From contig VMSV01000204.1 in the NCBI GenBank assembly GCA_013791935.1, positions 13,415-77,414 on the forward strand: 64,000 nt of DNA, written 5' to 3'. Both the position numbers and the translations under genes were made by a program. The stretch's first letter is position 1. Every line of letters begins with the position of its first letter. Below the pieces are notes generated by a model. The model did not search any database. It was not told the DNA's origin and was given only the letters and a program-made list of their open reading frames with translations. Below, in pieces: positions 7,431-58,708 of this stretch. The stretch comes from Desulfobacteraceae bacterium. GTDB lineage: Bacteria > Desulfobacterota > Desulfobacteria > Desulfobacterales > UBA5616.

Positions 7431-7445
7431 GGATTGTTTAACACC

Positions 7446-7571
7446 GAAATGGCCAATTTGCCCAATTTCTGCGTTGGACAAAAATTTTAATCCTCAAAAT
7501 ACTATAAGTATTCCTGCGGTTAAAATTTTTGTCCGCCTTGAACTTGAACAAATTTTCTCATTTCTGGATGG
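7446..7571 (+). repeat. MITE-like ~130-bp structured repeat, copy 1, in the intergenic leader before the NuoH-like gene
   Basis: About 90% identical to the reverse complement of 39591-39723. Contains a 15-bp perfect stem GGACAAAAATTTTAA...TTAAAATTTTTGTCC with a nested AATACT/AGTATT hairpin. Ends 37 nt before the ATG at 7609. Confidence 0.6.
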
Positions 7572-7608
7572 GCAATAGGTAGTTTCCATTCAATAAAAAG
7601 GGAACCTG

Positions 7609-8526
7609 ATGATTTCTATTCTTCTTTACATTCTTGCGATTCTTGTTTCACCGTTTTTTGCTGCGGTGATTCTCAAGGTGAAGGCCTTTTTCGGAGGGAA
7701 AAAGGGTCCGCCCCTGCTCATCCATTACTACACCCTGATCAAGCTCTTTAAAAAAGGATCGGTCTACAGCACCAGCACGACCTATATCTTTAAACTAGGG
7801 CCCGTGGTTTCTCTGGGCACGGCGGCAACCGCGTTGATGTTTCTTCCCATCGCCGGTTTTTCACCGCTTATTTCATTCAAGGGCGATATCATTTTTGTTT
7901 TTTACCTTCTGGCCCTGGGCCGGTTTTTCACCATTGCCGCAGCCATGGACACAGCCTCCCCGTTTGAAGGCATGGGGGCGGCTCGGGAAGCCTATTTCCC
8001 CATCATCTGTGAGGCTACCTCCTTCATGATCGTGATCCTGTTCTCCCGGCTTTCCGGAGAATTGAACCTGGCCGCCTATTTTTCCGAGAACCAGCCCATG
8101 GTTCTGTGGCAGAATGCCGGGGCTGCTCTTGTTTTTGTGGTGGTGGCGTTTTTCATTGTACTTCTCACGGAAAACGCCAGGGTTCCCGTGGACGACCCAG
8201 CCACCCATCTGGAGTTGACCATGATCCATGAGGTCATGGTTCTGGACCATAGCGGCCCGGATTTCGGATTGATTGAACTCGGGTCTTTTATAAAATTGTT
8301 TTTTTATTCAACCATCGTGGCGAGACTGGTTTTCCCCTTTGATTTGGGGAGCGGAGTGGCCAACGGCGGGGCTTTTGCCCTTACCCTGTTGTTCCTTTAT
8401 ACGGTGGCAGGGGTGGTTGAGTCGATCATGGCGCGCTACAGAATGGACAAGGTGCCCAAATTTATCCTCACCTCCTTTGCCCTGGCCTTTGTGGCAACCC
8501 TGATCACCCTGGAGGTCATAAGATGA
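7609..8526 (+). CDS. complex I NuoH / formate hydrogenlyase subunit 4 (HycD/HyfC)-like membrane subunit
   Basis: 305-aa membrane protein with NuoH/HycD-like helices. RBS AAAGGGAACC. Confidence 0.75.
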   Translation: MISILLYILAILVSPFFAAVILKVKAFFGGKKGPPLLIHYYTLIKLFKKGSVYSTSTTYIFKLGPVVSLGTAATALMFLPIAGFSPLISFKGDIIFVFYLLALGRFFTIAAAMDTASPFEGMGAAREAYFPIICEATSFMIVILFSRLSGELNLAAYFSENQPMVLWQNAGAALVFVVVAFFIVLLTENARVPVDDPATHLELTMIHEVMVLDHSGPDFGLIELGSFIKLFFYSTIVARLVFPFDLGSGVANGGAFALTLLFLYTVAGVVESIMARYRMDKVPKFILTSFALAFVATLITLEVIR

Positions 8527-26520: not shown

Positions 26521-28509
26521 TCAACCGTCCTTCAACGCCTGGCGTACCTTGACGGCCACATCATGGGTGGAGAAGGGTTTTTGAATAAATTGGACCCCTT
26601 CGTCCAGCACGCCGTGATGGGCGATGACATTGGCCGTGTATCCGGACATGAACAGGCGTTTCAGATTCGGGAAAAGGGACAACAGGGTTTTGGCCAGGTC
26701 CCGGCCGTTCATCTCGGGCATGACCACATCGGTCATGAGCAGGTGAATCTCACCGATGTGCTCACGAGCCATGCGGATGGCTTCCCCCGGCCTGTTCGCC
26801 GTGAGTACGGTATAGCCCAGCTTTTCGAGCATGATCCCAGTGATTCTCAGAATCGCCGGTTCATCCTCCACCAACAGGATGGTTTCACTTCCCTGCACAG
26901 TCGAACGGGTCGGGTCTTTCTTGCCCTCGGGTTTTGCAGCGACTTCGTGAATGGGCAGGTAAGTCTTGAACGTCGTGCCTTTTCCGGGTTCGCTGTACAC
27001 ATTGATGAACCCGTTGTTCTGCTTGATGATCCCATATACCGTGGCCAGGCCCAATCCCGTGCCTTTTCCGGGACCCTTGGTGGTGAAAAAAGGTTCGAAC
27101 AGATGGGCCACGATTTCTTTGTCCATGCCGCACCCGTTGTCGCTCACCGCCATCAGGATGAAGTCTCCGGGGACAAAACCGGCGTGGTCCGCGCAATAGG
27201 CTTCATCAAAGCTAACTTTTGCCGTCTCAATGGTGATCTTTCCCACATCCCCAATGGCATCCCGGGCGTTGACGCAGAGATTGGCCAGGATCTGATCGAT
27301 TTGCGACGGATCCATTCGTACCCACTCCACCCCTTTTCCCGGCAACCAGGCCAGGTCGATATCCTCCCCGAGAAGCCGCCGAAGCATCTTGAGCATGCCC
27401 TCAATGGTTTCGTTCAAGTCCAACACCTTGGGTGCAATGGTCTGTTTCCTGGCAAAAGCCAGGAGCTGCCGGACCACCTCCGTGGAACGCCGGGTGGCGT
27501 TTAAAATTTCCAGAAGATCATCATGAAGGGAATCGGATGGATTCACCTTTTCCAGGGCCAGTTCCGTATACCCCAGGATGACGCCGAGCATGTTGTTGAA
27601 ATCATGGGCCACGCCTCCGGCCAGCCGTCCCACGGATTCCATTTTCTGGGCCTGGTTCAGCTGGGCTTGCAGTTTTGCCCGTTCTTCTTCGGCGTGTTTT
27701 CGCTCGGTGATGTCCAGGGTGAAGCCTGCCAGGTACTGGGGGTTTTCCCCCGAGTGGATGGGAAATTTTATGGTGCTGTAGTGTCTTCCATCAAGTTCCT
27801 CTTCAATCTCAACTGTTTTTCCTTCGCGCAGGATCCGTTTGTCGTCCTCCACCATGGCCCTGGCAAGATCCGACGGGAACAGTTCATCCATGGATTTCCC
27901 CAGCAATTCATCCATGGGTTTGCCCAGCATGGCTTCGTAGTTGGCACTCAATCGGAGGGACCGGAGTTGATCATCCTTGAAGAAAACATAGATGGGGCTG
28001 TATTCCATGAATTGCCTGAATATTTCCTCACTCTCCTCCAGAGCCTCCTCGGCCCGTTTGCGCTCGGTAATGTCCTGAAGGGTTCCAACCACCATTTGAA
28101 GCTCAGGGTCAAACTCGGCCACCGAGTGAATGAACCGTATGGAGTTGTCCGAGGGCCGAAGGATTTTGAATTCAATGTCGTAGGGCGTCCCTTTTTCCAT
28201 GAGATTCTTTAATTCAGCGTTCAGGGACTGGCGGTATTCCTTCAGGGGCAGGGCTTGAACCTGTTCAATCGACCATTCGGTTCCTTCCAGGCCATAGACC
28301 CTGCGGGCCTGATCCGAGGCGGTCACCCTGCGAGTACGAAGGTCCAAGCGCCACGAACCGATTTTGGCGAGGGTTTCTGCCCGCTCAAGGTCCCGCTGGC
28401 TATCCCGCAAACGCTGAATGTTCTCGGTCAATTCCGTCATGGAGGCGTTTTCCTCCAAGTCCAGCAGGCGTTTGAGCTCATCAAGGGTCGGGTCTTGTTC
28501 TCGGGTCAT
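26521..28509 (-). CDS. PAS-domain hybrid sensor histidine kinase/response regulator (HK1 of the tandem array)
   Basis: Coiled coil + 2 PAS, then HisKA ([22 protein letters not shown]), HATPase_c (GxGxG: [18 protein letters not shown]) and a C-terminal REC (ILLVEDE...LLMTDVVMPEMNG). Confidence 0.85.
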   Translation of the reverse strand: MTREQDPTLDELKRLLDLEENASMTELTENIQRLRDSQRDLERAETLAKIGSWRLDLRTRRVTASDQARRVYGLEGTEWSIEQVQALPLKEYRQSLNAELKNLMEKGTPYDIEFKILRPSDNSIRFIHSVAEFDPELQMVVGTLQDITERKRAEEALEESEEIFRQFMEYSPIYVFFKDDQLRSLRLSANYEAMLGKPMDELLGKSMDELFPSDLARAMVEDDKRILREGKTVEIEEELDGRHYSTIKFPIHSGENPQYLAGFTLDITERKHAEEERAKLQAQLNQAQKMESVGRLAGGVAHDFNNMLGVILGYTELALEKVNPSDSLHDDLLEILNATRRSTEVVRQLLAFARKQTIAPKVLDLNETIEGMLKMLRRLLGEDIDLAWLPGKGVEWVRMDPSQIDQILANLCVNARDAIGDVGKITIETAKVSFDEAYCADHAGFVPGDFILMAVSDNGCGMDKEIVAHLFEPFFTTKGPGKGTGLGLATVYGIIKQNNGFINVYSEPGKGTTFKTYLPIHEVAAKPEGKKDPTRSTVQGSETILLVEDEPAILRITGIMLEKLGYTVLTANRPGEAIRMAREHIGEIHLLMTDVVMPEMNGRDLAKTLLSLFPNLKRLFMSGYTANVIAHHGVLDEGVQFIQKPFSTHDVAVKVRQALKDG

Positions 28510-28566
28510 GGCATCCTCGTTGTTTGTTCATTTCCAAATTCTTCAATCCGGCTGCATGCAACGGAT

Positions 28567-31098
28567 TTACGATGGTGGATCCGGGTTTTTGGTGTGGAAC
28601 AGGGTTTCTCTCACCTTCATGGCGATATCCTTTTTAGAGAAGGGTTTCTGAATAAAGTGCACCCCTGCATCCAGCACCCCGTGATGGGCGATGACGTTGG
28701 CCGTGTACCCGGACATGAACAGGACTTTGAGATCCGGATAAAAAAGCATCATTTCTTCAGCAAGATCCCGGCCGTTCATACCGGGCATGACCACATCCGT
28801 GATAAGCAGATGGATTTTTCCAGGGGGAATTTTAGCCAACCGTAAGGCTTCCTCCGGTGTCTTTGCCGTAAAAACGGTATAACCCAGATTTTCCAGCATG
28901 GTTTTGCCCAGGGCCAGGATGGCCCCCTCGTCTTCCACAATCAGGATATGTTCCCCTTGGCCCCGCGGGAGGATTGAGGTGCTCTCCAGTGGCATTGCAG
29001 CGCCTTCGCCCTGGTGCCGGGGCAGGTAGATTTTGAAGGTGGTTCCAATTTGCTGTTCACTGTAGACGTTGATGAATCCGTTGTTCTGTTTGACGATTCC
29101 ATACACCGTGGCCAGTCCCAGGCCGGTGCCTCCCCCCGGCTCCTTGGTGGTGAAAAAAGGCTCGAACAGATGGGCCAGCACCTCTTTGCCCATGCCGCAC
29201 CCTTTGTCGCTCACTGCCAGCAGAACATAGTCTCCGGGGACAAATCCGGCGTGATCTGCACAATACTCCTCATCAAAGCTCGCCTTGCCCGTCTCAATGG
29301 TGATCTTTCCCACATCTGCAATAGCATCCCGTGCGTTCACGCAGAGATTGGCCAAGATCTGATCCATCTGCGACGGGTCCATTCGTACCGGTCCCACCAC
29401 TTTGCCCGGCAACCAGGCCAGGTCGATATCTTCACCTATAAGACGCCTAAGCATCTTGAGCATTCCCTCCACGGTTTCATTCAAGTCCAGGATCTTGGGT
29501 GCAATGGTCTGCTTACGGGCAAAGGCCAGCAGCTGCCGGACAATCGCCGTTGAGCGGCTGGCAGCGTTGAGGATTTCCCGAAGATCTTTATGAAGGGGAT
29601 CGGAGGGGTTCACTTTGTCCATGGCCAATTCCGAATACCCCAGAATGACGCTGAGCATGTTGTTGAAATCGTGGGCCACCCCTCCCGCGAGCCGACCCAC
29701 GGATTCCATCTTCTGGGCCTGGACCAGCTGGGATTGCAGGATTTCCCGATCTTCTTCCGTTTGCTTCCGTTCCGTGATGTCTAAAAAACCAGCCAGGAAA
29801 TTGTCGCCTATTCGGCTGTGGGAAATCAAGACCGTACGGATCTCGCCGTTTTTGCAGGTGATCCGGTACTCGAAGGGTTCTATGCCCATTTTTTCCCCAG
29901 GACCTCGTTGCAAGGCGGCTTCCCAGGTTTCCAACACCCATCCCCGATAGCCGGGGTCCGGGTAGGCCAGTTGCCACCACTCGTTAAGGGTTGGTACTTC
30001 CTCACTTGAATAACCGAAGACTTTGGAAAAAAGGCGACTGGTGTTTACCAGAACGCCCTCCTTATTCACCAAGCACAGGGGGATCGGGGCTACTTCAAAG
30101 AGGTTCCGGAACAGTTCCTCGCTTTTTCCCAAGGCCAATTCAGCCTCTTTTCGATGCTTGATTTCTCTGAAAAGCTTCCGGTTCCAGACCCCCAGCCCGG
30201 AAAGGATCACCACAAACAAGGCCAGGACCTGCCAGAGCAGCCGGTAGTTAATCCCATGCTCATAGCGCACCGGAAGCCATTTTCGGTAAATCTCCGCATG
30301 CTCTTTTTCGGAAATGGAGTCCAACCCTTTCTGCAGAATTCCCGCCAGGATAGGCCAGTCGCTGCGTACCGCCATGGATTGGGCGTTTACGTACGGGGTT
30401 TCCCCGGCGATCTTGATATTGGCCATTTTGAGTTTTGCCATGGAATAGCTGACCACCAGCATATTATCAATGTAGGCAAAGACCTCCCCTCTTTGCAGCA
30501 GTTCAAGGCCTTCCTCAGCATTCTTTGCTTTCACCAGCCGGATTTCGGGAAAGTCTTTCGGAATCCAGTCGTTGACCGCGTAGCCATCCACAATGGCCAC
30601 ACGCTTTCCGGAAAGTTCCCTCATCTTGTCTATGTAGGTCACATCCGCCTGGGCGAAAATGGCGATGGGGATTTTCATGTAAGGCTTTGTGAAGAGCCAG
30701 AATTGGGTTCGCTCAGGGGTTACAGCCACGGAAGTAGTCATGTCGATTTCATGGCGCTGGAGCCGGGTGTAGGCCTCCTGCCAGCTCAAGCCTTTCACCC
30801 GCTCAAAGGCAACCCCCAGGCGATTCTCCAGGAGTTTCAGATAATCCCCGGCCATTCCGGAAGGTTCTCCTCGGGCATCCACAAATTCAATGGGCGGCCA
30901 GCCCGGGTCCTGAACCACCCGAATGACCGGGTGATCCCGCAACCAGGCTCGATCCTCCGCATCCAAAAGTTCCTCGCCATACAGGGGATTGCTGTCCAAA
31001 AAGAGGAGCATCGGAAGGAAAATCCATACGACCCAAAGCATCCCCCTGCTTTTTTCTTGCCCTTTTTTTGGGCTTGGATTTCTCGGGTTTCTTTTCAT
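28567..31098 (-). CDS. hybrid sensor histidine kinase with periplasmic solute-binding (SBP_bac_3-like) sensor domain, PAS, HisKA, HATPase, REC (HK2)
   Basis: Signal/TM, then a type-3 SBP fold, a TM helix and a PAS domain. The kinase+REC core is near-identical to HK1. Start set at MKRNPR (AGAGG RBS); the track ORF extends to 31185. Confidence 0.8.
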
Positions 31099-31162
31099 AA
31101 CCTCTTTCTGATGGACTTTTTCGAAACGATGAATCCTCCAAAACCGCTTTTCCCCAAGGGAG

Positions 31163-33343
31163 CTACTCCTGATCCAGGGCCTCACGAACCTTGGTGGCGA
31201 TATCTTGCATGGAAAAGGGCTTGGGAAGAAAACGCACCCCTTCGTCCAAGACGCCGTGATGGGCTATGGTGGTGGCCGTGTACCCGGACATGAACAGAAC
31301 CTTGATCTCCGGGTAAAGCACGATCAATTGTTCGGCCAGATCCAACCCGTTCATCCCGGGCATGATCACATCCGTGACGAGCAGTTGAATTTCGTCTGTA
31401 TGTTCCCTGGCCAGGGTCAGGGCATCTTCCGGGCTGTTGGCCCCCAGCACGGTGTACCCGAGGTTTTCCAGCATGGTTTTGCCCAGGGTCAAGATGGCCT
31501 TTTCGTCTTCCACCATCAGAACGGTCTCCCCCCGGCCCCGTGAAATGGGCTGGGAACTGTCCACGGAGATCATTCCTGCTTCTCCTTCGTGGCGGGGCAG
31601 ATAGATCTCGAAGGTGGTTCCTTTGCCCGGTTCACTATCCACGTGAATGAACCCGTTGTTCTGCTTTATGATGCCGTACACCGTGGCCAAGCCCAGGCCC
31701 GTGCCTTCTCCCGCCCTTTTGGTGGTGAAAAAGGGCTCGAACAGGTTGGCCAGGATTTCCTTGTCCATTCCGCATCCGTTGTCGTTTACGGTCAACAGGG
31801 CGAAATCACCCGGAGCACAGTCGATATTGTCGGCACAATAGACCTCATCAAAGCTTGCCCGGCCGGTTTCAATGGTGATCTTGCCCACGCCGGCAATGGC
31901 ATCCCGTGCATTCACACAGAGATTGGCCAGGATTTGATCGATTTGGGACGGGTCCATGCGGATCGGCCACAGGCCCGTTTCCGGCAGCCAGGCCAGATCA
32001 ATGTCCTCTCCGATGAGCCTACGGAGCATCTTAAGCATGCCCTCGATGGTTTCGTTCAGGTCCAGAACCTCGGGAACAATGGTCTGTTTCCGGGCAAAGG
32101 CCAGCAGCTGCCGGACAATGGCCGTGGAGCGCTCGGCGGCATTCAGGATTTCACGAAGATCCCCATGAAGGGAATCGGCCGGGTCCATCTTTTCCATGGC
32201 CAGCTCCCCATAACCGATGATCACGCTGAGCATGTTGTTGAAATCATGGGCCACGCCTCCGGCCAGGCGACCCACGGACTCCATTTTCTGGGCCTGGTGA
32301 AACTGACCTTCCAGGAGCTTGTGTTCGGTAATATCCTGGATCAGGCCGTCGTAGCTCACGATCACCCCGTACCCGTCCCGGTGGGGCACCGTGGTGTTTC
32401 TCACCCAGCGGATCTCCTCGTCTTTTCGCAGAATTCGATGTTCCAGGGGTTGGGTCTCTTCACCGGCTGCGGCCCGCTTGGCATGTTCAATGACCCGGTC
32501 ACGGTCCTCGGGCACGACGATTCCCAGCCACAGGAAGGGGTCCTGGGCAAATTCGTTTTCATGATACCCGGTAACGGCCAGGCACCCAGGCCCATGGGCG
32601 GTGGACACGGCCGTGCCGTTTTCCATGTGCACCGTATAGACATAATCCGTGATGGCATGGGTAATTCGCTTGTAACGTTCCTCGCTTTCCCGCAGGGCCA
32701 TCTCCATGCGCTTGTTCTCGGCGATGTCGGACATCACCACTCGGCACACAAGGGTGCCGTCTTCATGCCGGGCGGCAATGGCGTCCAGCCGGACCCAGAG
32801 CGGGAGGTGCCCCGTTTTCACCATCCGCAGCCTGCACACCTGGGGCTCACCGGTTTCAAAAAGCGCCTTGCGATGCCGGTAGTAGATGTCCTGGTCTTCC
32901 TTCAGGATGAACCGGACAATCGGCTGCTTGGCCAGCACACTCCGGGGCACATTCAGTTGATTGGAAGCGGTGAGGTTGGCCTCCAGGATCAGGCCTTGCT
33001 CGCTCAGGGTGACATACCCCACGGGCGCAAGGTCGTAGAGATCGAAATACCTGGCCCGGGAAGCGTCCAGTTCTTCCCGGGCACGGCGCAGCTCCTCGTT
33101 CTGCATGGCCAGCTCGATCTGGTGAACCTCCAAGTCGTGGACCATTTGGCGGATTTCCTCCGGGGAGAGGGTCGTGGGGTCCGCCCCGGTCTTATCTGCT
33201 TTTGGACGGGCTTGGGAAAGTTCTTCCGGTTCAGCGGCCTTATGGGCCTTGATATTTTTGCTGTTCATGGAAGCCTCTTTGGTCATGTTAAAAACCATTT
33301 GTCCCGGACATCGGGCCTTGGTTTTTCCAGCCATGAATGTCAT
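31163..33343 (-). CDS. PAS-domain hybrid sensor histidine kinase/response regulator (HK3)
   Basis: Coiled coil, 2-3 PAS, then the same HisKA/HATPase/REC core. ATGA overlap with HK4. An alternative start at MNSKNIK (33268) has a better RBS (AAAGAGG). Confidence 0.8.
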   Translation of the reverse strand: MTFMAGKTKARCPGQMVFNMTKEASMNSKNIKAHKAAEPEELSQARPKADKTGADPTTLSPEEIRQMVHDLEVHQIELAMQNEELRRAREELDASRARYFDLYDLAPVGYVTLSEQGLILEANLTASNQLNVPRSVLAKQPIVRFILKEDQDIYYRHRKALFETGEPQVCRLRMVKTGHLPLWVRLDAIAARHEDGTLVCRVVMSDIAENKRMEMALRESEERYKRITHAITDYVYTVHMENGTAVSTAHGPGCLAVTGYHENEFAQDPFLWLGIVVPEDRDRVIEHAKRAAAGEETQPLEHRILRKDEEIRWVRNTTVPHRDGYGVIVSYDGLIQDITEHKLLEGQFHQAQKMESVGRLAGGVAHDFNNMLSVIIGYGELAMEKMDPADSLHGDLREILNAAERSTAIVRQLLAFARKQTIVPEVLDLNETIEGMLKMLRRLIGEDIDLAWLPETGLWPIRMDPSQIDQILANLCVNARDAIAGVGKITIETGRASFDEVYCADNIDCAPGDFALLTVNDNGCGMDKEILANLFEPFFTTKRAGEGTGLGLATVYGIIKQNNGFIHVDSEPGKGTTFEIYLPRHEGEAGMISVDSSQPISRGRGETVLMVEDEKAILTLGKTMLENLGYTVLGANSPEDALTLAREHTDEIQLLVTDVIMPGMNGLDLAEQLIVLYPEIKVLFMSGYTATTIAHHGVLDEGVRFLPKPFSMQDIATKVREALDQE

Positions 33344-36300
33344 GGATCAACATAGGTTTTTCTCCCTTCATCCAGGGCCTCACGCACTTTGACGGCGACA
33401 CTTTTCATGGAGAACGGTTTTTGAAGAAAACGCACCCCCTCGTCCAGCACACCGTGATGGGCGATGACATTGGCCGTGTACCCGGACATGAAGAGAACTT
33501 GGATTTCCGGATGAAGCAGGAGCAGTTGTTCGGCCAGATCCCGGCCGTTCATTCCGGGCATGACCACATCGGTGATGAGCAGGTGAATTCGGTCTCCAAC
33601 CTCCCGGGCCAGCGCCATGGCCTCATCCGGTGAGTTTGCCGACAGCACGGTGTAACCCAGTTTTTCCAGCATGGTTTTGATCAAAAGCAGGATGACTTCC
33701 TCGTCTTCCACGATGAGAACCGTCTCCCCTTGGCCCCTCGGGATGGAGGATGCGCTTTCCTCGGGAATGGCCACGACTTTTCCCTCGTGGCGGGTCAGGT
33801 AGATTCTGAAGACGGACCCTTTTTCCGGCTCACTGTAGACATTGATGAACCCGTTGTTCTGCTTGACGATGCCGTACACCGTGGCCAAACCCAAACCCGT
33901 GCCTTCTCCCACGCCCTTGGTGGTGAAAAAAGGCTCGAAAATGCAATCCAGGGTTGCTTTGTCCATGCCGCATCCGCTGTCGCTCACCACCAGCAGGATG
34001 AAATCCCCGGGAGCAAAGCCCGGGTGGCTGGCGCAGTATTCCTGATCCAGGGTCACCCGGTCCGTTTCAATGGTGATTTTTCCAACGCCGGCGATGGCGT
34101 CCCGGGCGTTTACGCAAAGGTTGACCAGAATCTGATCGATCTGGGAAGGATCCATCCTCACCGGGCACACACCGGGTTCCGGAAGCCATGCCAGGTCGAT
34201 GTCCTCGCCGATAACCCGCCGGAGCATTTTGAGCATGCCCTCCACGGTCTCGTTCAGGTCCAGCGACCGGGGGGCGATGGTCTGCTTCCGGGCAAAGGCC
34301 AGCAACTGGCGAACCACTTCCGCGGACCGTTTGGTGGCGTTGAGAATTTCCTGAAGATCCCCTTGAATGGAATCGGACGGGGCCACTTTGTCCATGGCCA
34401 GTTCCGCATACCCCAGAATCACGCCGAGCATATTGTTGAAATCGTGGGCCACGCCCCCGGCGAGCCTGCCCACGGATTCCATCCTTTGGGCTTGGTTCAG
34501 CTGGGCCTCCAGGGCCTTGCGCTCGCTCAAGTCCACACCGATACAGGTCAGATCCAAGAGGTTCCCGTGGGCATCCAGGGAGAGGGCGTTGGACCAGACC
34601 ACATGGTGCCGCTTACCCTTTCGGGACAGGATTTCATTCTCATGGATGGAAAAGCCTGAAAGATTTTCATTGCTCACGGTTTCGAAAAATACCCTTCGGA
34701 TATCTTCTTGGATTTCAGGGGGAATGAACCTCTCGAACCAGTCTTGACCCAGGACTTCTTCTTCGGTCCACCCGGTCAATTGCAGAAAGTGCCGGTTGGC
34801 AAAGGTGATTTGACCTCTGGGGTTCAGGCTGATGCCAATCTGGGGGATGTTGACGAGGATGTTCCGCCATTTCCGTTCGGACCCTATCAACGCATTCTCC
34901 GCTCTTTTTTGCTCCACCACCGGCCAAATCACATCCGCCAGGAAAGCCACGGTTTCGGCGTCCTTTTCCGTATAGTCACAAGGTTTGTTGCCCAACCCCA
35001 GAATCGCCACCACCTTGTCATTTTTCATCACGGGAACCACCAGTTCCCGGATCACCTCGGCATGGCCGTCGGGCATCCCCTTTCTGTTGGGCAGGGATGC
35101 GTAGTCGTTGTGAAGGATTGGCTTGCCCGTGCCCACGCAATCTGCCCAGACCCCGGCCTGGTCTATGTCGTAATGGGTTCCCCGGCCCTGGGCCTGGCAG
35201 AACTCTTGTTGGGTCCGGGTGGACCATTGCTGGAGGGAAAGGGTCCTCTGGTCGGCATCCACAAAGTGATAGAACCCGATGGGGCTGTCCACCAAGGCCC
35301 CGATTTCATCCAGGGCTTTGGTTAATAAATCATCCAGGGAATGCGTTGAAGCGTATTCCACCAGGGTAAGACGCACCTGGTTCAACCGGTTCTGCCAGCG
35401 TTCTTCGGTCCGGTCCCGGAACACCAGCACCACGCCGGTGATCTCGCCAAGGTTGTTGCGGATGGGGGCTGCGGAGTCGGCGATGGGACGTTCTTCCCCG
35501 TTTTTGGCAATGAGCAGGGTGTGGTTGGCCAGACCCACCACCAGGCCATGGCGCAGGACTTTGGCCACCGGGCTTTCTGAAATTTCGCGGGTCTCTTCAC
35601 TGATGATGTGAAAAACCTCTTCCAGGGGTTTGCCCCAGGCCTCCTCATGGTTCCAGCCGGTGAGGGCCTCGGCCACGGGGTTGAGCAATTCCACCCGGCC
35701 CTGAACATCGGTGGCGATCACCGCATCCCCGATGCCCTTGAGGGTGACACTGTGTCGTTCATTGCTGGCTCGCAGCCTGGCTTCACTGTCGAAAAGCTCT
35801 TTGTAGTGGATTTTTCTGCCTCGTTCCCGAACCGCCAGCCAGATCGCTCCGATCACAGCCATGAAGCCCAACCACAGCATAAGCATCAGGATGGAACGGA
35901 AACGCCAAACCGCATAAACCTCCTCCTCATCCTCCTTGGCCACCATGAACCAATCTGAATCGGGTACGGGCAGGATCACCGCCAAGACCTGGACACCCCG
36001 GTAGTCTGTGCCTCGCACCATCCCCTTTTCACCCTGCACGGTCATGACCGCGGGCAAATCCGTCCGGGTGAGGGGAATGCGCAGTTTGAGGGCCGCACCC
36101 GTCTGATGGCGCAGGTCATTGAGAAAAAGCACATGATCGCCATCCCGCCGGATCAGCAGCGTTTCGGCGGTTTTACTCAGCGTGGGCCAGGTCTGAATCA
36201 AAGGATAGAGGAATTTCGACGCATTGAAGATCATGATGACCGCGCCCATGGCATGGGGGCGATACCCGTCCCGGGACAGAATCGGAGCAATCACACTGAT

Positions 36301-36792
36301 ATGGGGCACCGGGTTTTGCTCTTCCATATGCAATTGGGTTAAGGCAGGCTTGCGGCTTTGCAGCGCCTCGGCCAAGCCTTCCGCGTACCCGCTGTTAGGC
36401 TCCATGTTACCGGTCATGCTCATCAGAATCCTGCCCTCGGGACTGGTGAGCAGGATGTCCGTGTAATGTTGGTTGATCATGAGGGTGCGAAAAAAGGCCT
36501 GGATGTCCTTGGCATTCTCTTGGCTCGGATCGGCCATGAAGCGGGTGATCCCGTCGGCTAAAAACGGGTTTCCTGCTACCAAGGCACCGTCCCCCAGCCG
36601 TTCCTTTCGCCAGGCATCAATCTGGTCCACCTTGAGGCTCCCCATGGAAACCAGTCTGTCTTCAGCCGCATGTTGGAGAACCCTCTCCTGGCTTCGGTAA
36701 AATACTGCGCCTCCGGCCAATAGGGCCAGAAGTGCCGCTCCCAGAACCATCGTCATCCACCGAGGGAATGCGCTCCCTTCACTCTTCATCAT
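33340..36792 (-). CDS. hybrid sensor histidine kinase with periplasmic Cache-like sensor, PAS-GAF-PAS, HisKA, HATPase, REC (HK4)
   Basis: Two TM helices flank a periplasmic domain of about 280 aa. The cytoplasmic part carries PAS/GAF/PAS and the conserved kinase-REC core. 1150 aa. Confidence 0.8.
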   Translation of the reverse strand: MMKSEGSAFPRWMTMVLGAALLALLAGGAVFYRSQERVLQHAAEDRLVSMGSLKVDQIDAWRKERLGDGALVAGNPFLADGITRFMADPSQENAKDIQAFFRTLMINQHYTDILLTSPEGRILMSMTGNMEPNSGYAEGLAEALQSRKPALTQLHMEEQNPVPHISVIAPILSRDGYRPHAMGAVIMIFNASKFLYPLIQTWPTLSKTAETLLIRRDGDHVLFLNDLRHQTGAALKLRIPLTRTDLPAVMTVQGEKGMVRGTDYRGVQVLAVILPVPDSDWFMVAKEDEEEVYAVWRFRSILMLMLWLGFMAVIGAIWLAVRERGRKIHYKELFDSEARLRASNERHSVTLKGIGDAVIATDVQGRVELLNPVAEALTGWNHEEAWGKPLEEVFHIISEETREISESPVAKVLRHGLVVGLANHTLLIAKNGEERPIADSAAPIRNNLGEITGVVLVFRDRTEERWQNRLNQVRLTLVEYASTHSLDDLLTKALDEIGALVDSPIGFYHFVDADQRTLSLQQWSTRTQQEFCQAQGRGTHYDIDQAGVWADCVGTGKPILHNDYASLPNRKGMPDGHAEVIRELVVPVMKNDKVVAILGLGNKPCDYTEKDAETVAFLADVIWPVVEQKRAENALIGSERKWRNILVNIPQIGISLNPRGQITFANRHFLQLTGWTEEEVLGQDWFERFIPPEIQEDIRRVFFETVSNENLSGFSIHENEILSRKGKRHHVVWSNALSLDAHGNLLDLTCIGVDLSERKALEAQLNQAQRMESVGRLAGGVAHDFNNMLGVILGYAELAMDKVAPSDSIQGDLQEILNATKRSAEVVRQLLAFARKQTIAPRSLDLNETVEGMLKMLRRVIGEDIDLAWLPEPGVCPVRMDPSQIDQILVNLCVNARDAIAGVGKITIETDRVTLDQEYCASHPGFAPGDFILLVVSDSGCGMDKATLDCIFEPFFTTKGVGEGTGLGLATVYGIVKQNNGFINVYSEPEKGSVFRIYLTRHEGKVVAIPEESASSIPRGQGETVLIVEDEEVILLLIKTMLEKLGYTVLSANSPDEAMALAREVGDRIHLLITDVVMPGMNGRDLAEQLLLLHPEIQVLFMSGYTANVIAHHGVLDEGVRFLQKPFSMKSVAVKVREALDEGRKTYVDP

Positions 36793-36885
36793 GGGGTCCC
36801 CTGTCGTTTATACGGGGGTCTTTCCAAAACCTTCCCGCGGGTTTGCCCAAGCGAAATCGTTCTGTGGGTCTTTTTCACAAACATG

Positions 36886-39564
36886 TCACACTCCCCTTCT
36901 TTCTTCCTTCCCAAGGCCGATCACCTCTTGGATTTTGGCGGCAAGCTCCTGAATGGTAAATGGTTTTTGAATTAAATGCACTCCTGGATCCATCACACCG
37001 TGATGGGCGATGGCATCGGCCGTGTACCCGGACATAAAAAGGACTTTGATCTTCGGGAAAAGGGACGTAAGCTGCCCGGATAGATCCGGTCCGTTCATTT
37101 CCGGCATGATGACATCGGTGATGAGCAGATCAATGGTGCCGGAGCAAGCCTCGGCAAGAATCAAGGCTTCTCCCGGAGCATTGGCCGTCATCACGGTGTA
37201 GCCGAGCTTTTCCAGCATGATCGCCGTCATCTTCAGAATCGCCGCCTCGTCCTCCACCACCAAAACGGTCTCCCCCTTGCCCTGCCGGACGACCGAAGGG
37301 ATTTTGGCAGGAATCATCCCGGTTTCGCCCTGGTAGCGAGGCAGATGGATCTTTACCAAGGTCCCTTTGCCCGGTTCACTGGAAACATGGATGAATCCAT
37401 GGTTCTGCTTGACGATGCCGTACACCGTGGCCAGGCCCAAGCCGGTGCCCTCTCCCACCTCCTTGGTGGTGAAAAAAGGCTCGAATAGATTGTCCATAAT
37501 CTCTTTTTCCATGCCGTGACCATTGTCCCTCACCGTCAGCACGACATAGTCCCCCGGGGAAGCTCCCGAATGCTCGGAACAGTATTCTTCATCCAAACTC
37601 ACCCGGCCGGTTTCGATGGTGATCTTGCCCACCCCGGTGATGGCGTCCCGGGCGTTGATGCACAGATTGGCCAAAATCTGGTCGATTTGCGACGGATCCA
37701 TCCTCACCGGCCAGACTTTCGCGCCGGGCAGCCAGACCAGGTCGATATCCTCATCGATGAGTCGCCGAAGCATCTTGAGCATCCCTTCCACCGTCTCGTT
37801 CAGGTCGAGTACTCGGGGAGATATGGTCTGTTTGCGGGCAAAGGCCAGCAATTGCCGGACCACCTCCGTGGACCGTTTGGCTGCGTTTAAAATTTCTCCA
37901 AGAGCATCATGAACGGGATCATCCGGAGCCACCCTGTCCATGGCCAGCTCCGCATAACCGTTGATGACGCTGAGCATGTTGTTGAAATCGTGTGCCACGC
38001 CGCCTGCGAGCCTTCCCACGGACTCCATCTTCCGGGCCTGCTGAACCTCGGCTTCCAGCCGCAGTTGCCCCGTAATGTCCCGTTTGACGGCAACAAAGCT
38101 GATGATCTTGCCCCCGGAATCCCGAACCGGAGAAATCGTGGTCTCATCCGTGTAGAGGGTTCCGTTCTTCCGTTTGTTGACCATGCGTCCTTGCCATGTT
38201 TCACCGGATTTGATGGTGGTCCAGAGATCCTCGTAAAAAACCCTGTCCTGTTTCCCGCTTTTCAGGAAACGCGGGTTTTTTCCCAGAATTTCTTCTTCGG
38301 CATATCCAGTGGCCCGCTCAAAGGCGGGGTTGACATACTGGATGGCGCCGTGGCCGTCGGTGGTAAAAATGATATCGCCAGCCTGCTCAATGGCGGCCAT
38401 CATCCGTTCCCGCTCCATGGAGGCTTGTTTTTGTTCGGTGATGTCGCTGAAAACCCCCAACACGCCTACAGTATTCCCGTCTTTGTCTCGAATCGGTGTT
38501 TTAATCGTATAGGCCCAGGCAGTCCTGCCGCTTGTCACGTATTGCTCCTCAAGGCTCTCCGTTTTGCCGGAGGTCATGACCCGAAAATCGTCGGCCCGGT
38601 ATTTTTCGGCCAGCTCTCGGGTGAAGAGGTCATAGTCGGTCTTTCCGGCGATTTCCTCCTGCCTGATGCCCAGATCTCGGACAAAGTTCTCGTTGCAGGA
38701 CAGGTAGACCGACTGCCGGTCTTTTGCGAAAATCGCCTGTGGAAGGCTTTCAACCAGGGTGCGGTATTTTCCTTCGCTCGCGCGCAAGGCATCCATCACC
38801 TGTTTGCGTTCGGTGATGTCATGGGCCACTCCGCGAACGATGGGTTCTTCGGCTTCCTTGGAGCGCAGGGTGGTATGGTATTCCCAGATGAGTTTTTTGC
38901 CCGACCTGGATTGAACGGCAAGCAGGCCCTTGACCTCGCCTTGGGTTTCCACCGTTTTGAGGTATTCATCAAACGCACGGGTGGTTTCCGGCATTAGGAT
39001 ATCCCGAAGATTCATCTGCAGCAGGGTGTCCCTGTCAAAACCTAAAACGGTCGCCGCCCATGGATTCACCGAAAGAATGCGGCCTTTGAGATCGTGTGTG
39101 CAGATGAGGTCCCGGCTGTTTTCCACCAGGTCCCGGTATCGGTCTTCGCTCTCGCGCAAGGCCTCCTCGGCTTTCTTGCGGCCGGTGATGTCGCTGATGA
39201 TGTGCACTGCGCCGGAATACTGTCCGGCTGCGTCAAGGATGAGATCTACCGTAACCTGGAACCAGCTCTCGTCGGCTTTCAACTCCATGCTCTCGCGATG
39301 CAGGCTTATTTCTGCCCGCTTCAGGGGGCATTCGGGGATGGGTCGGGCCGTATGGTGTAAGATTTCCCAGCAGTGCCGGCCGATCAAATCCGGAAATGAA
39401 TCCTGGAACATTCGCTTTGCCGTTTTGTTGGCCTGCAGGATGCGCTGGTCCTTGTCGAGAATCCATATGGCGTCATTGGTGGCGTCAAAGGTCGTCCGCC
39501 AGTGACGCAATTCCTCTTCCCGGTTGTCCACGGCCGAAATGCCCGTATTTTCAAAATCCGTCAT
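36886..39564 (-). CDS. multi-PAS hybrid sensor histidine kinase/response regulator (HK5)
   Basis: At least 4 PAS/PAC repeats, then HisKA ([28 protein letters not shown]), HATPase and REC. Start set at MTDFENTG (GAGGTG RBS). The track ORF begins at a TTG inside the repeat element. Confidence 0.8.
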   Translation of the reverse strand: MTDFENTGISAVDNREEELRHWRTTFDATNDAIWILDKDQRILQANKTAKRMFQDSFPDLIGRHCWEILHHTARPIPECPLKRAEISLHRESMELKADESWFQVTVDLILDAAGQYSGAVHIISDITGRKKAEEALRESEDRYRDLVENSRDLICTHDLKGRILSVNPWAATVLGFDRDTLLQMNLRDILMPETTRAFDEYLKTVETQGEVKGLLAVQSRSGKKLIWEYHTTLRSKEAEEPIVRGVAHDITERKQVMDALRASEGKYRTLVESLPQAIFAKDRQSVYLSCNENFVRDLGIRQEEIAGKTDYDLFTRELAEKYRADDFRVMTSGKTESLEEQYVTSGRTAWAYTIKTPIRDKDGNTVGVLGVFSDITEQKQASMERERMMAAIEQAGDIIFTTDGHGAIQYVNPAFERATGYAEEEILGKNPRFLKSGKQDRVFYEDLWTTIKSGETWQGRMVNKRKNGTLYTDETTISPVRDSGGKIISFVAVKRDITGQLRLEAEVQQARKMESVGRLAGGVAHDFNNMLSVINGYAELAMDRVAPDDPVHDALGEILNAAKRSTEVVRQLLAFARKQTISPRVLDLNETVEGMLKMLRRLIDEDIDLVWLPGAKVWPVRMDPSQIDQILANLCINARDAITGVGKITIETGRVSLDEEYCSEHSGASPGDYVVLTVRDNGHGMEKEIMDNLFEPFFTTKEVGEGTGLGLATVYGIVKQNHGFIHVSSEPGKGTLVKIHLPRYQGETGMIPAKIPSVVRQGKGETVLVVEDEAAILKMTAIMLEKLGYTVMTANAPGEALILAEACSGTIDLLITDVIMPEMNGPDLSGQLTSLFPKIKVLFMSGYTADAIAHHGVMDPGVHLIQKPFTIQELAAKIQEVIGLGKEERRGV

Positions 39565-39590
39565 AAGCACCTCTATTTTTTTGATAGTGT

Positions 39591-39723
39591 CCATCCAGAA
39601 ACGAGAAAATTTGTTCAAGTTCAAGGCAGGTAAAAATTTTAACCACAGGAATACTCGACGTATTTTGAGGATTAAAATTTTTGCCTAACACAGAAATTGG
39701 GCAAATTGGCCGTTTCTGGATGG
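39591..39723 (-). repeat. MITE-like ~130-bp structured repeat, copy 2, with 13-bp terminal inverted repeats CCATCCAGAAACG
   Basis: Reverse complement is about 90% identical to 7446-7571. Flanked by CCATCCAGAAACG ... CGTTTCTGGATGG. Ends 27 nt upstream of the HK5 start on the minus strand. Confidence 0.6.
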
Positions 39724-40000
39724 GTACTATATAGAAAGGACCGAATTGAACATGTCTCAAACCCTATGGTGCTCAACCCGCAACGGCTTGCTTCCTTTAG
39801 CGATATGCAGTCCCACTTGGCGGGACAGTGGCTTATAGATACTGGATCAATTCCGGGATGACGCTTGGAGGCAATGTCAACCTATTATTCAACTAAAAGC
39901 CTGGAAAAATCAAGATTCGATTGCGTATTTCCTGAGGTATTGGCAATTCTTTCGGGAAAAGATCAAGGGGTGGATATTTTTTCAGGGGAATGGTTTTGCC

Positions 40001-40036
40001 AAAAAAAAATCAACCGGCCAATTGGCCGGTTGATTT
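40001..40036 (-). terminator. rho-independent terminator (minus strand): perfect 26-bp palindrome ATCAACCGGCCAATTGGCCGGTTGAT followed by a T9 run on the minus strand
   Basis: A9 run at 40001-40009 on the plus strand is a T9 run on the minus strand directly 3' of the GC-rich hairpin. Lies downstream of the FG-GAP gene. Confidence 0.6.
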
Positions 40037-40373
40037 CGGAGAGGAGAAAAAGATGAAGATTTTTTTGGTTTCGCTATGGTGAAATGCAATTCGATTGCCA
40101 AAGTTATTTTTTTGATAATCTTTTTTAAATTTTGAGGTCTATCTGTTTATTATTCAGCAGGTTAAAATTTATAAAATTATTATTTTCAGCCAATTGAATG
40201 GTTTCGCCAGTGCAGGTGGGCAAGGTTTTGTTCACCATATTGAACCCTGAAAATGACGTCATTTGATAAAAAATACTGATATTTAACAATATTTTGCATT
40301 AAATCGCAGAGTTCAAAATTTTGAACCCCGATCATAATTTTGTACACTGGTTTTCGCACCTTCAAATTAGGCA

Positions 40374-41543
40374 CTAATCACCCGATTCAAATCCTGTTGC
40401 GCCGATGAAACAACTGTTGGAGCCGGTTCTTTCCTCCGGATCGAATTTGCTGTTGTTCAGAAATACCGAAACCGTATCTCCGTTGTCATTGGCGGTGGCC
40501 ATATCGGGTTTGTCGTTTCCGTCAAAATCCGCCAGGACGATGCAATGGGGTCCGTTGCCCGAGGCGTAATTCACGGCGGATTCGAAGGTGCCGTCGCCGT
40601 TGCCCAAAAGGACGGAAACATTATTGCCATCATAGTTGGCAATCGCAATGTCCAGGTTCCCGTCTCCTTCAAAATCGTCCACGGCCACCGAGCGGGTGGC
40701 ATCCCCTGCGTTATAACTCACGGCGGCATCAAAGGTTCCGTCGCCGTTGCCCAATAGAACCGACACACGGGTGGCGCCATAGTTTGCAGTCACAATATCG
40801 AGGTTGCCGTCATCATCAAAATCCCCTGTGGCCAACGAACGGGTGCCATTCCCCGCGGCAAAATGGACCGGGGCATCGAAGGTGCCGTTGCCGTTTCCAA
40901 GAAGGATGGAAATATTGTTGCCGAAATAGTTGGCGGTGGCCAAGTCAAGGTTGTTGTCGCCGTCAAAATCATCCACAACCACCTGGTAGGGGCCGTCCCC
41001 CGTGGTAAAGGCGGTAATGGGCTGAAAGGTGCCGTTGCCGTTGCCCGGGAGAACGGAAATCGTATCGTTGTCGGCATTGGCGGTGACAATATCCACATCC
41101 CCGTCCTTGTTAAGATCCTCCACCGCAACCCATCGGGGAGCGGTATTGATCGCATGATGGACCGGGGCCGCAAAGGTTCCGGTTCCGGTTCCCGAAAGCA
41201 CCGAAACACTATTCCCGTTCCGGTTGGCGCACACAATATCCACATGGTCATCCCCGTTTATTTTTCCCATGGCCACGGAATAGGGTCCACTTCCTGCGGT
41301 ATAATCCACAGCAACAGCAAACCCGCCTGATCCATTGCCCAGAAAAACCGAAACCGTATCCGCCCCGTTGTTGGCCGTCACCATATCCGGATCTCCATCG
41401 TTGTTTAAATCTCCTGCCGCCAGGGCATAGGGCGCATCCCCCGATGCAAAATCCGTGGAAGCCATAAAGCTCAGGTCACCGGCATGGGTCACCAAAGGGC
41501 TGCATAATAAGAGTAAAACCAGAATTGTTAATTTGTTTTTCAT
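40374..41543 (-). CDS. secreted FG-GAP/VCBS-type beta-propeller repeat protein
   Basis: Signal peptide MKNKLTILVLLLLCSPLVTHA, then about 7 repeats of the form DxDGDGxxDIxxAN...VSVLLGNGDGTF. Repetitive DNA produces several overlapping ORFs in other frames. Confidence 0.8.
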   Translation of the reverse strand: MKNKLTILVLLLLCSPLVTHAGDLSFMASTDFASGDAPYALAAGDLNNDGDPDMVTANNGADTVSVFLGNGSGGFAVAVDYTAGSGPYSVAMGKINGDDHVDIVCANRNGNSVSVLSGTGTGTFAAPVHHAINTAPRWVAVEDLNKDGDVDIVTANADNDTISVLPGNGNGTFQPITAFTTGDGPYQVVVDDFDGDNNLDLATANYFGNNISILLGNGNGTFDAPVHFAAGNGTRSLATGDFDDDGNLDIVTANYGATRVSVLLGNGDGTFDAAVSYNAGDATRSVAVDDFEGDGNLDIAIANYDGNNVSVLLGNGDGTFESAVNYASGNGPHCIVLADFDGNDKPDMATANDNGDTVSVFLNNSKFDPEERTGSNSCFIGATGFESGD

Positions 41544-48972: not shown

Positions 48973-49201
48973 GGCAAAATTACTTGAAATTATTAGTAGG
49001 AACAGGGGCTCCTGTCAACAACCGATTGCCATCCCATGACGGATGTCCAGAAATAAAGGTCTAAAATTTAAGTTAATAAAATGGATTAAGCGATGAATCA
49101 AGTTGATTTGCTTTCTCCCCCTGTGCTATAGGAGGTTCCGTCCCATTCGATCCCATGCAATTTTCAATGCCGTTTCCTTAAGATAATTCATCTGTCATAA
49201 G

Positions 49202-49273
49202 GGCGGGGATAAACCCCGCCCCTACAGCGCAGAGTGCGATTTGAACGTAGGGGTGGGGTTTATCCCCACCCGC
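49202..49273 (+). other. 72-bp imperfect palindrome / twin hairpin in the leader of the nfeD-flotillin operon
   Basis: GGCGGGGATAAACCCCGCCCCTAC ... 21 nt ... GTAGGGGTGGGGTTTATCCCCACCCGC. Each arm is itself a GC hairpin. Lies 10 nt before the AAGGAG RBS. Confidence 0.5.
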
Positions 49274-56937: not shown

Positions 56938-58302
56938 ATGTCGGATAAAATACAGATCCTGTTTGTGGATGACGAGGAAAACAACTGCAAGGCCTTTGTT
57001 CGCCTCATGCGCCTGGAAAAGGAGTATGAAGTGGCCATCGCCTTGAACGGCCTGGAAGCCCTGGAAAGCCTCAAAAAAAAACCCGCAGACATCGTCATCA
57101 CGGACATGAAAATGCCGGAAATGGACGGTCTATCCCTGTTAAAAGAGATTCGGGAGCGGTATCCCGATGTTTTTGTCATCGTGGTCACCGGCCATGCTTC
57201 GGTGGAAAACGCCGTGAAAGCCATGAAGCTCGGAGCGTATGACTACCTGACCAAACCTTTTGACTTTGATGTCATCAACATGATCCTGGGGAAAATATCA
57301 GAGCATGCCCGGGTGCTCAAAGAGGCGGAGGATTTTGAAGAAGACGCCGGGAAACCCTACCGGTTTGAGAACATCATCGGCCAGGACCGGAAGATGTTCA
57401 AAATCTATGAAATGATCCGGGCCGTGGCCAAAACCAACGCTTCGGTGCTCATTACCGGGGAAAGCGGTTCGGGAAAGGAATTGATTGCCGAAGCCATTCA
57501 TTCTCGAAGCCAGAGAAAGGCAAAACCCTATCACCAGGTGAATTGCGCTGCTTTAACCGAGTCCATCATCAACAGTGAACTTTTCGGCCATGAAAAAGGA
57601 TCGTTTACCGGCGCAAACCAGCAGAAAATAGGCTTGTTTGAACTGGCGGATCAAGGCACGCTTTTTCTGGATGAAATCGGCGACGTACCATTGCAGATCC
57701 AGACCTCCCTTTTGCGGGTTCTTGAATACGGAACCTTCCAGAGGGTGGGGGGCTCTCAAACCCTGAAAGTGGATACCCGCATTGTCTGCGCAACCAATCG
57801 GGACCTTTCCGAAGCCATCCGCAACAAGCAGTTCCGTGAAGATTTGTTCTATCGCATCAATGTGGTGTCCATCGAGGTTCCGCCTTTGCGGGAGAGAAAG
57901 CAGGACATCCCGCTGCTGGCCAAATATTTCCTGGAAAAATACGCCAGGGAGAACGATGTTTCGGCCAAACGCCTGGCCAAATCAGCTGTAAAAATCCTCA
58001 TGCAATACGACTGGCCGGGAAACGTCCGGGAACTGGGCAATATCATCAACCACGCCCTGATTTTCTGCAAAGGCGGCAACATCATCCCCGAAAACCTGCC
58101 CCCGGGAATCCGGGAGAGTGCTTTTCAGAGGGAATTCAGCCTCACCTTTACTTCCACGTCCCTTCCGAAGGCTGAAGAATCCCTGATTCGACGGGTGATT
58201 GAGATGAATAACGGCAATCTCAAGCAGGCCGCGTCAGACCTGGATATCGCCAGGGGAACCCTGTACAGTAAGATGCAGAAGTACGGGATTGAAAAACCAT
58301 AA
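56938..58302 (+). CDS. sigma-54-dependent Fis-family response regulator (NtrC-like: REC + AAA+ + HTH)
   Basis: REC domain (ILFVDDEEN...VITDMKMPEMDG), Walker A GESGSGKE, ESELFGHEKGSFTGA (GAFTGA-type sigma-54 contact motif), C-terminal Fis-type HTH. Confidence 0.85.
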   Translation: MSDKIQILFVDDEENNCKAFVRLMRLEKEYEVAIALNGLEALESLKKKPADIVITDMKMPEMDGLSLLKEIRERYPDVFVIVVTGHASVENAVKAMKLGAYDYLTKPFDFDVINMILGKISEHARVLKEAEDFEEDAGKPYRFENIIGQDRKMFKIYEMIRAVAKTNASVLITGESGSGKELIAEAIHSRSQRKAKPYHQVNCAALTESIINSELFGHEKGSFTGANQQKIGLFELADQGTLFLDEIGDVPLQIQTSLLRVLEYGTFQRVGGSQTLKVDTRIVCATNRDLSEAIRNKQFREDLFYRINVVSIEVPPLRERKQDIPLLAKYFLEKYARENDVSAKRLAKSAVKILMQYDWPGNVRELGNIINHALIFCKGGNIIPENLPPGIRESAFQREFSLTFTSTSLPKAEESLIRRVIEMNNGNLKQAASDLDIARGTLYSKMQKYGIEKP

Positions 58303-58692: not shown

Positions 58693-58708
58693 TGGCACGG
58701 GGGTTGCT
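58693..58708 (+). promoter_or_regulatory. sigma-54 promoter: TGGCAC-GGGGG-TTGCT (-24/-12)
   Basis: Exact match to the TGGCAC-N5-TTGC consensus, 72 nt upstream of the ATG at 58780. Downstream of the sigma-54 activator gene. GTGAAAT-N11-ATTTCAC inverted repeats lie 250-390 nt upstream. Confidence 0.6.

Follow-up and report, generated by a model that had tools for sequence, protein, structure and literature searches.

What is the short inverted-repeat sequence that lies directly upstream of the hybrid sensor kinase gene HK5 in a Desulfobacteraceae genome: a regulatory leader of this gene, or a mobile element? A sequence-only reading had described it as the second copy of a MITE-like element with intact terminal inverted repeats (TIRs). 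To answer this question we analyzed the whole 64-kb stretch of DNA in which it lies (hereafter the window), which matches a Desulfobacteraceae metagenome-assembled genome (MAG) and an ENA metagenome contig, together with further copies of the sequence in genomes and metagenomes. The sequence, called here copy 2, is very probably one copy of a non-autonomous DNA transposon of the MITE type. The element is thus of an ordinary kind, of a family not found described in Rfam or in literature searches, and its hairpin is unusually well conserved.

Position, ends and fold of copy 2

A perfect 13-nt inverted repeat had been claimed for this site, and it is present: read on the plus strand, 39591-39603 is CCATCCAGAAACG and 39711-39723 is CGTTTCTGGATGG, the only zero-mismatch pair of this 13-mer within the 64-kb window. 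The pairing is therefore as perfect as described, but these two 13-mers are not complete termini; they make up just the perfectly matched segment of a longer terminal repeat. In the same way the proposed element at 39591-39723 holds as to its core, while alignment with the family places its ends 4-5 nt further out. This alignment, with 11 copies of subfamily 1 and 54 copies of subfamily 2, sets the ends at G39587 and C39727 (plus T39728). The features of the locus are as follows.

36886-39564, minus strand: HK5 hybrid sensor kinase, with four PAS domains, HisKA, HATPase_c and a receiver
39582-39586: left flank of copy 2, TGATA, the expected site of a 5-bp target-site duplication
39587-39728, plus strand: MITE copy 2, full length, 141 nt GTGTCC...GGGTAC plus a terminal T; the forward strand carries AAATTTGTTCAAGTTCAAGG
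39587-39603, plus strand: left terminal inverted repeat or outer stem, GTGTCCATCCAGAAACG, which contains the 13-mer 39591-39603
39607-39626, plus strand: left inner arm, AAATTTGTTCAAGTTCAAGG, a putative transposase-binding part
39628-39687, plus strand: central hairpin with an A/T-rich stem (39628-39644 / 39671-39687); compensatory changes occur in its stems across the family
39648-39654 / 39660-39666, plus strand: apical stem of the central hairpin, with the loop 39655-39659, from the fold
39687-39705, plus strand: right inner arm, AACACAGAAATTGGGCAAA; family consensus RACGCAGAAATTGGGCAAA
39711-39728, plus strand: right terminal inverted repeat or outer stem, CGTTTCTGGATGGGTACT; GTAC pairs with GTGT via two G.T wobbles

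The unit is 141-142 bp long, about 39% G+C and non-coding, and profile HMMs built for the two half-elements match it at 39586-39656 (E 3e-21) and 39659-39727 (E 5e-20). Outward, the pairing reaches 39585/39729 by way of two G.T wobbles (TAGTGT / GTACTA), and inward it spans the whole element, so that the terminal repeats comprise 13 perfectly paired nucleotides, or 17-19 nt counting the wobbles, and some 145 nt are predicted to fold end to end as a single continuous imperfect hairpin. As RNA, 39585-39730 has a folding energy of -65.0 kcal/mol on the plus strand (z -10.7) and -50.2 kcal/mol on the minus strand (z -7.9); none of 200 shuffled sequences folded as well. The neighbours of copy 2 are HK5 on one side and an FG-GAP-repeat gene (40374-41543, minus strand) on the other. 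The latter contains six repeats with a period of 147 nt (40447-41387), which are repeat units of its protein.

The second copy in the hydrogenase operon

The same reading had reported another copy, and this is confirmed: 7446-7577 and 39585-39716 are 89% complementary over 132 nt, in inverted orientation. A relaxed HMM search of the 64-kb window detected no copies beyond these two.

7447-7575, minus strand: MITE copy 1, between the hyfB-like (5472-7430) and hyfC-like (7609-8526) genes

The flanking genes, coding for a hyfB-like antiporter-type subunit and a hyfC-like NADHdh subunit, belong to a membrane hydrogenase operon. Copy 1 lacks about 10 nt of one terminus (it matches positions 2-62 of the right-half HMM). 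The hyfB-hyfC junction carries the element in the window and in locus L145 (HyfC 85% identical), and is free of it in two others. One of these, L146 (HyfC 81% identical), has a 57-bp spacer matching the window flanks; in the other, L147 (86%), the spacer is 14 bp and the hyfB stop is directly followed by the hyfC ribosome-binding site. The degenerate-looking TIR of copy 1, GGATTGTTTAACACCG (7431-7446), matches the ancestral hyfB-hyfC spacer in the element-free L146 (2444-2500). Since this odd terminus is ancestral spacer, copy 1 appears to be terminally truncated rather than mutated.

Distribution and subfamilies

How widespread is this sequence? The exact left-arm 20-mer AAATTTGTTCAAGTTCAAGG was searched in GTDB species representatives and gave 17 real copies, up to four per MAG, plus three chance matches. 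The hosts of the 17 copies are Desulfobacterales, Desulfobacteraceae, Desulfosalsimonas, Syntrophaceae, Syntrophobacterales and unclassified Deltaproteobacteria MAGs. An independent right-arm 19-mer was found at at least 120 loci in JGI metagenomes, and among the matches listed nearly all are real elements. Of the 118 full copies listed from the right-arm search, 9 contain the exact left-arm 20-mer, and most differ from it at one or two bases (consensus AATTTTGTTCAAGTTCAAGG). The half-element HMMs detected 129 full copies, which lie in 112 loci (0.85 Mb in all) at a density of up to four per 12.9 kb. Many contigs start or stop inside the element, which indicates a repeat that breaks metagenome assemblies.

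At least three subfamilies have common inner arms and a common central hairpin, while their outer 20 bp or so (GTGTCCATCC..., GAGACCTTTGC... and CGACAGGTTG...) are unrelated between subfamilies, every subfamily having its own matching pair of tips. Subfamily 1, GTGTCCATCCAGAAATG..., is the type of the window; subfamily 2, GAGACCTTTGCAGAATG..., is the most common and is called here the main subfamily; the third type is CGACAGGTTGTTACA.... Length variants from 101 to 285 bp were found (101, 109, 141, 142, 143, 155, 164-169 ... 285), including both truncated and expanded copies. In many members of the family, recurrent internal sites hold between one and three additional mini-hairpins that are G+C-rich, e.g., CCCGATCATCGGG and AGCGCTAAAGCTTCACTTCGTGCAAAATG (loci L026, L027, L032, L038, L044, L048, L075, L104, L109, L126 and L139). 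In addition, two half copies, consisting of the right half from the apical loop onward, are joined to a G+C-rich segment (L033 3179-3247 and L092 5877-5945). A group II intron 3′ end was considered for them and rejected: Rfam gave no match and the adjacent gene codes for a TrkA-type K+ channel.

The window gave nothing at the gathering score of Rfam 15, and 39500-39850 at E <= 10 gave only spurious hits to miRNA-precursor hairpins; no tRNA or tmRNA was found. A plasmid search returned no match to the element, and literature searches with the sequence strings and for MITEs in Desulfobacterota or sulfate reducers returned nothing relevant. We therefore regard these sequences as a MITE superfamily not found described, which is very abundant in the sulfate-reducing and syntrophic Deltaproteobacteria of sediments. 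Its insertion polymorphism could make the family a marker for strain typing.

Evidence for transposition

If the family is mobile, its copies should be flanked by target-site duplications. Of the 94 copies of the main subfamily, 52 have the same 5 nt immediately before GAGACC...GGTCTC as after it, and 77 show at most one mismatch between these two pentamers; random re-pairing of the flanks gives means of 1.0 and 5.2. No such signal was detected in this subfamily at k = 3, 4, 6, 7 or 8. The length variants have the 5-bp duplication as well (exact in 12 of 29, with at most one mismatch in 22 of 29), and since variants up to 285 bp still have it, the expanded forms evidently transpose as well. 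The duplications have a G+C content of 28%, compared with 42% in the flanks. Four of 12 copies of subfamily 1 are bordered by identical 6-mers (TATTTA, TACCTA, TAGTTA); since ...CAC is almost invariably followed by T, we read them as 5 bp plus a terminal T of the element.

The copies are intergenic, and between co-directional neighbours their orientation is unbiased (21 sense, 15 antisense); 15 insertions lie between convergent genes and four between divergent ones. Their neighbours are unrelated housekeeping genes, among which oxidoreductases, ABC transporters and the like recur. Prokaryotic MITEs are described as AT-rich elements of less than 500 bp with TIRs, direct repeats that fade with age and stable stem-loop transcripts (PMC10969869). 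The present element is likewise shorter than 500 bp and non-coding, and has TIRs, a target-site duplication at the level of the family, and dispersed copies with presence or absence at orthologous sites. The MITE-like nature proposed for it is thus borne out by the duplications of the family, the dispersed copies, the truncated and length variants, the empty copy-1 sites, the absence of coding capacity and the absence of an Rfam family.

How old is copy 2 itself? Its flanks, TGATA and ATATA (39729-39733), agree at three of five positions, so the duplication has probably decayed, as expected of an old insertion. The ortholog locus L142/L143, known from two NCBI MAGs whose kinase is 91% identical to HK5, is syntenic and has the element at the same site, with few substitutions relative to copy 2, one of which gives the perfect terminus GGACAC. 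The insertion would accordingly be older than the split of these lineages, and copy 2 may be taken as an old insertion predating the divergence of two Desulfobacteraceae lineages. An empty orthologous site was not found for copy 2; the sole close ortholog (91%) is occupied, and the next homologs are at most 56% identical over most of the protein. With only three of five flank positions matching and with no empty site, the mobility of copy 2 in particular rests on its membership of the family. The 809-bp intergenic region upstream of HK5 (39565-40373) is about 97% identical between the two genomes, while the HK5 proteins are only 91% identical; this non-coding region is conserved no less than the HK5 gene.

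Search for a transposase

The family is probably moved in trans, and we propose that this is done by a DDE-type transposase that would make 5-bp staggered cuts and recognize both the terminal and the inner-arm sequences. No transposase was found among the ORFs scanned in the window or among the recurrent neighbours in about 0.85 Mb of loci, nor was an autonomous partner with the same termini found in these loci, the window, plasmids or viral contigs; the viral contigs gave one marginal match. When an autonomous parent was sought through TIR pairs more than 260 bp apart, the sole find was a pair of independent MITEs in L088. We also considered, and rejected, the half copies of L003 and L012, which adjoin a shadow ORF and a DUF4384 protein and no transposases.

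The start of HK5 and its leader

The 912-aa ORF 36886-39624 begins at a TTG within copy 2. The sequence-only reading had suggested that the element pushes the apparent start of HK5 upstream and that translation begins at an ATG at 39564. Two NCBI-annotated proteins (100% and 91% identical) both start there (39564-39562), with MTDFEN..., the GAGGTG ribosome-binding site is at 39573-39568, before this in-frame ATG, and the first PAS domain starts at residue 22 counted from it. The extension to 39624 is transposon-encoded, so the earlier start-codon call was right. The same reading had dismissed two short ORFs as genes, and we agree: the 69-aa ORF 39551-39760 (minus strand) and the 79-aa ORF 7339-7578 (plus strand) begin in unrelated flanks and have in common only the part encoded by the element, ...PICPIS(V/A)L(G/D)KNFNPQNT(S/I)SIP(V/A)VKIF.... 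Family members also differ in length by numbers that are not multiples of three (e.g., 141, 142, 143, 155, 164, 166). Because lengths in the family are out of reading register and the ORFs start in unrelated flanks, they are judged non-genic. Together these points support the view that reading through the element creates the TTG extension of HK5 as well as the two ORFs of 69 and 79 aa, all three being artefacts. In the corrected annotation HK5 starts at ATG 39564, the two small ORFs are dropped, and a hairpin of -50 kcal/mol stands just upstream of the ribosome-binding site.

What could such an insertion do to HK5? Copy 2 would have entered an AT-rich spacer just upstream of the ribosome-binding site; 22 nt separate its end (39587) from the ATG. 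The first intrinsic terminator further upstream is a strong one at 40037-40006 (minus strand), and a weak sigma-70-like site is found at 39913-39884 (minus strand); accordingly, transcription of HK5 probably begins between these two. It is plausible, by inference from these positions, that copy 2 is part of an HK5 5′ leader of about 300 nt. It would then be co-transcribed, and its reverse strand would form the hairpin of about -50 kcal/mol ending 13 nt before the Shine-Dalgarno sequence. No T run follows the hairpin on either strand, and the minus-strand sequence after it is A-rich; lacking a U tract, the hairpin does not qualify as an intrinsic terminator. Its presence would most likely be neutral for HK5, or else alter the processing or stability of the mRNA.

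A conserved hairpin with unequal strands

Across bacterial orders the inner arms and the centre of the element are more conserved than its termini, the opposite of what MITEs usually show. Has the structure itself been preserved? We tested covariation in the main subfamily only, on a gap-free alignment of 52 distinct copies. Standard pairs are formed by 97.7% of the cells, compared with 31-54% when the partners are slid by one to three columns, and there are 15 compensatory pairs against 4.7 +/- 1.5 in shuffles (0 of 500 shuffles as high). A tally over the per-pair tables for six covarying pairs counts 41 cells with a G.U intermediate and one with A.C; five G.U pairs are fixed. Between arms, transitions of the G.U type exceed those of the A.C type by only about 2:1 (20 vs 10, counts that are non-independent).

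The two strands do not fold equally well. The forward strand (AAATTTGTTCAAG...) is the better RNA fold in each of the 101 distinct copies, by a median of -18.9 kcal/mol, and RNAalifold gives -39.4 for it and -14.7 for the reverse complement. With DNA parameters the strands are nearly equal (-34.5 vs -32.4 and -30.9 vs -24.6). The strand asymmetry is real at the level of the family. Its cause might be a difference in function between the left and right ends, or else a single-stranded (RNA) form of importance to the element; there is a hint of constraint on the single-stranded form beyond simple binding of a transposase. Structure-preserving evolution combined with this asymmetry makes the family a useful case for asking why some MITEs retain a hairpin.

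Alternative explanations

Could the element belong to a known group of transposons or hairpin-forming sequences? On insertion into AT-rich DNA, Tn3-family transposons and the TIMEs derived from them duplicate 5 bp, sometimes 6 bp; they have IRs of about 38 bp and form long stem-loops (PMC4133298; PMC13367494). TIMEs are usually single-copy, which has been attributed to transposition immunity (PMC4133298). A TIME mobilized by a Tn3-type TnpA would account for the AT-rich 5-bp duplication, for some identical 6-mers in subfamily 1 and for imperfectly matching arm segments of about 40 nt. By eye, GCAGAAT and CAGAAA are also placed about as far from the tip as they are in the Tn1721 and Tn21 IRs. 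Homology to the 38-bp IRs was not recovered, however: six arm consensuses compared with five Tn3-family IRs show 7-16 identities, against 19-31 within the Tn3 family, and the best alignment reaches z +2.6 (14 of 1000 shuffles), a value uncorrected for the 30 comparisons made. Neither the GGGG tip nor the inner TAAG is seen, up to four copies occur in 12.9 kb, and the loci scanned contain no Tn3-type transposase. Because the IR homology is non-significant and TIMEs are typically single-copy, we did not file the element among them and consider such an origin unlikely. Far less probable still is an element of the single-strand-DNA hairpin type (REP/RAYT, IS200/IS605-PATE or integron attC), to which the full-length palindrome, the strand asymmetry and the conservation of structure over sequence at the tips might point. 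The 5-bp duplication speaks against it, as none of these systems is known to leave a target duplication. REPs, moreover, are G+C-rich sequences of 20-40 nt, and any mobilization of them is due to RAYT HUH enzymes. The ends of the element lack the attC core sites RYYYAAC / GTTRRRY, the GTTAAAC in copy 1 being ancestral spacer; cassette arrays are absent, and neither an HUH transposase nor an integrase is encoded nearby.

The remaining alternatives treat the sequence as an RNA. A non-mobile cis-regulatory leader of HK5, such as a riboswitch or attenuator, would agree with the distance of 22 nt to the start codon, with the strong and covarying fold, and with the same orientation of both window copies relative to the downstream gene. 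These downstream genes are unrelated, though (a kinase and a hydrogenase subunit), and over the 129 copies position and orientation to genes vary, so that neither a fixed orientation nor a coherent gene set is seen; with target-site duplications, empty sites, no U tract on either strand and no match to a curated family in Rfam, we give this explanation hardly any credence. It is somewhat less improbable, but still doubtful, that the element mainly carries a strand-specific structured RNA, spread by a new transposon family. Such an RNA, or single-strand module, could be an exapted regulator or a guide or partner RNA for the transposase or another protein, and at HK5 an antisense or leader RNA; the element would then be more than selfish DNA. 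The covariation (97.7% paired, 15 compensatory pairs), the more stable forward strand in 101 of 101 copies and in RNAalifold, an asymmetry that is large with RNA parameters and small with DNA parameters, the G.U rather than A.C intermediates, the core kept across Desulfobacterota orders while the tips turn over, and the extra hairpins inserted at recurrent sites are all in its favour. Against this, orientation shows no bias that would signal selection at the RNA level: with 21 sense and 15 antisense copies, read-through transcripts would carry the forward strand only about half of the time. The element has no promoter or terminator of its own and no conserved protein neighbour, the arm-vs-arm preference for G.U is only about 2:1, and intra-element repair that maintains the palindrome could mimic covariation. 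A non-autonomous transposon of the MITE type accounts best for the duplications and the empty copy-1 sites.

Other features of the window

On the minus strand, 26521-39564 contains five tandem paralogous hybrid histidine-kinase genes, and a sixth relative lies at 59055-61208; the paralogs share 300-nt blocks that are 60-85% identical. An exact sigma-54 consensus, TGGCAatcgaaTTGCA, is found upstream of this array at 40100-40085 (minus strand), one of two matches in the window against 0.41 expected. A sigma-54 promoter inside copy 2 had also been considered, and it was rejected since the spacing is wrong by eye; the sole exact match nearby is this one (40085-40100), outside the element. About 50 nt after it there is a 14-bp G+C-rich terminator hairpin (40037-40006) with a T9 run. 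The predicted transcript of about 75 nt has an unpaired CU-rich stretch, UCUUUUUCUCCUCUCC, and a fold z of -5.2, and the region 39998-40100 is 100% identical in the ortholog locus with the 91%-identical kinase. This region (minus strand) is a candidate for a sigma-54-dependent small RNA adjoining the kinase array. The second match, TGGCACGGGGGTTGCT at 58693-58708 (plus strand), lies shortly downstream of a sigma-54 activator response-regulator gene (56938-58302). At 49201-49271, just upstream of an NfeD-like gene at 49295, there is a pair of 25-nt G+C-rich inverted repeats that are 92% complementary, with a 21-nt spacer and both arms palindromic.

Comparison with known systems

Searches of Rfam, plasmids and literature sequence strings revealed no sequence relationship to known elements. 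In general design the family resembles the prokaryotic MITEs Correia of Neisseria, ERIC/IRU of enterobacteria and Chunjie: all are short, non-coding and AT-rich, with TIRs and fading duplications, and have many dispersed intergenic copies, truncated and length variants and predicted long stem-loop transcripts. Correia and ERIC are associated with TA targets, whereas here the duplication is of 5 bp. The family differs from known MITEs also in the higher conservation of inner arms and centre over tips, and in having one strand that is systematically the better folder.

The TIMEs share with it the 5-bp, occasionally 6-bp, AT-rich duplications, the imperfect terminal repeats of about 40 bp, the stem-loop and the non-autonomous state. 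Here, in contrast, the unit is 142 bp, compared with 209-288 bp in TIMEs, the Tn3 IR signature was not recovered, and the hosts are Desulfobacterota instead of Gammaproteobacteria and their plasmids.

At the level of single insertions, copy 1 lies inside an operon between two genes and disrupts neither of them, as does Chunjie of Geobacter uraniireducens, an element of 178-235 bp (PMC10969869). For copy 2 a parallel would be the transcribed palindromes of REP/BIME and ERIC, in which, as we infer for the HK5 locus, a stable transcript hairpin may change the processing or decay of the mRNA.
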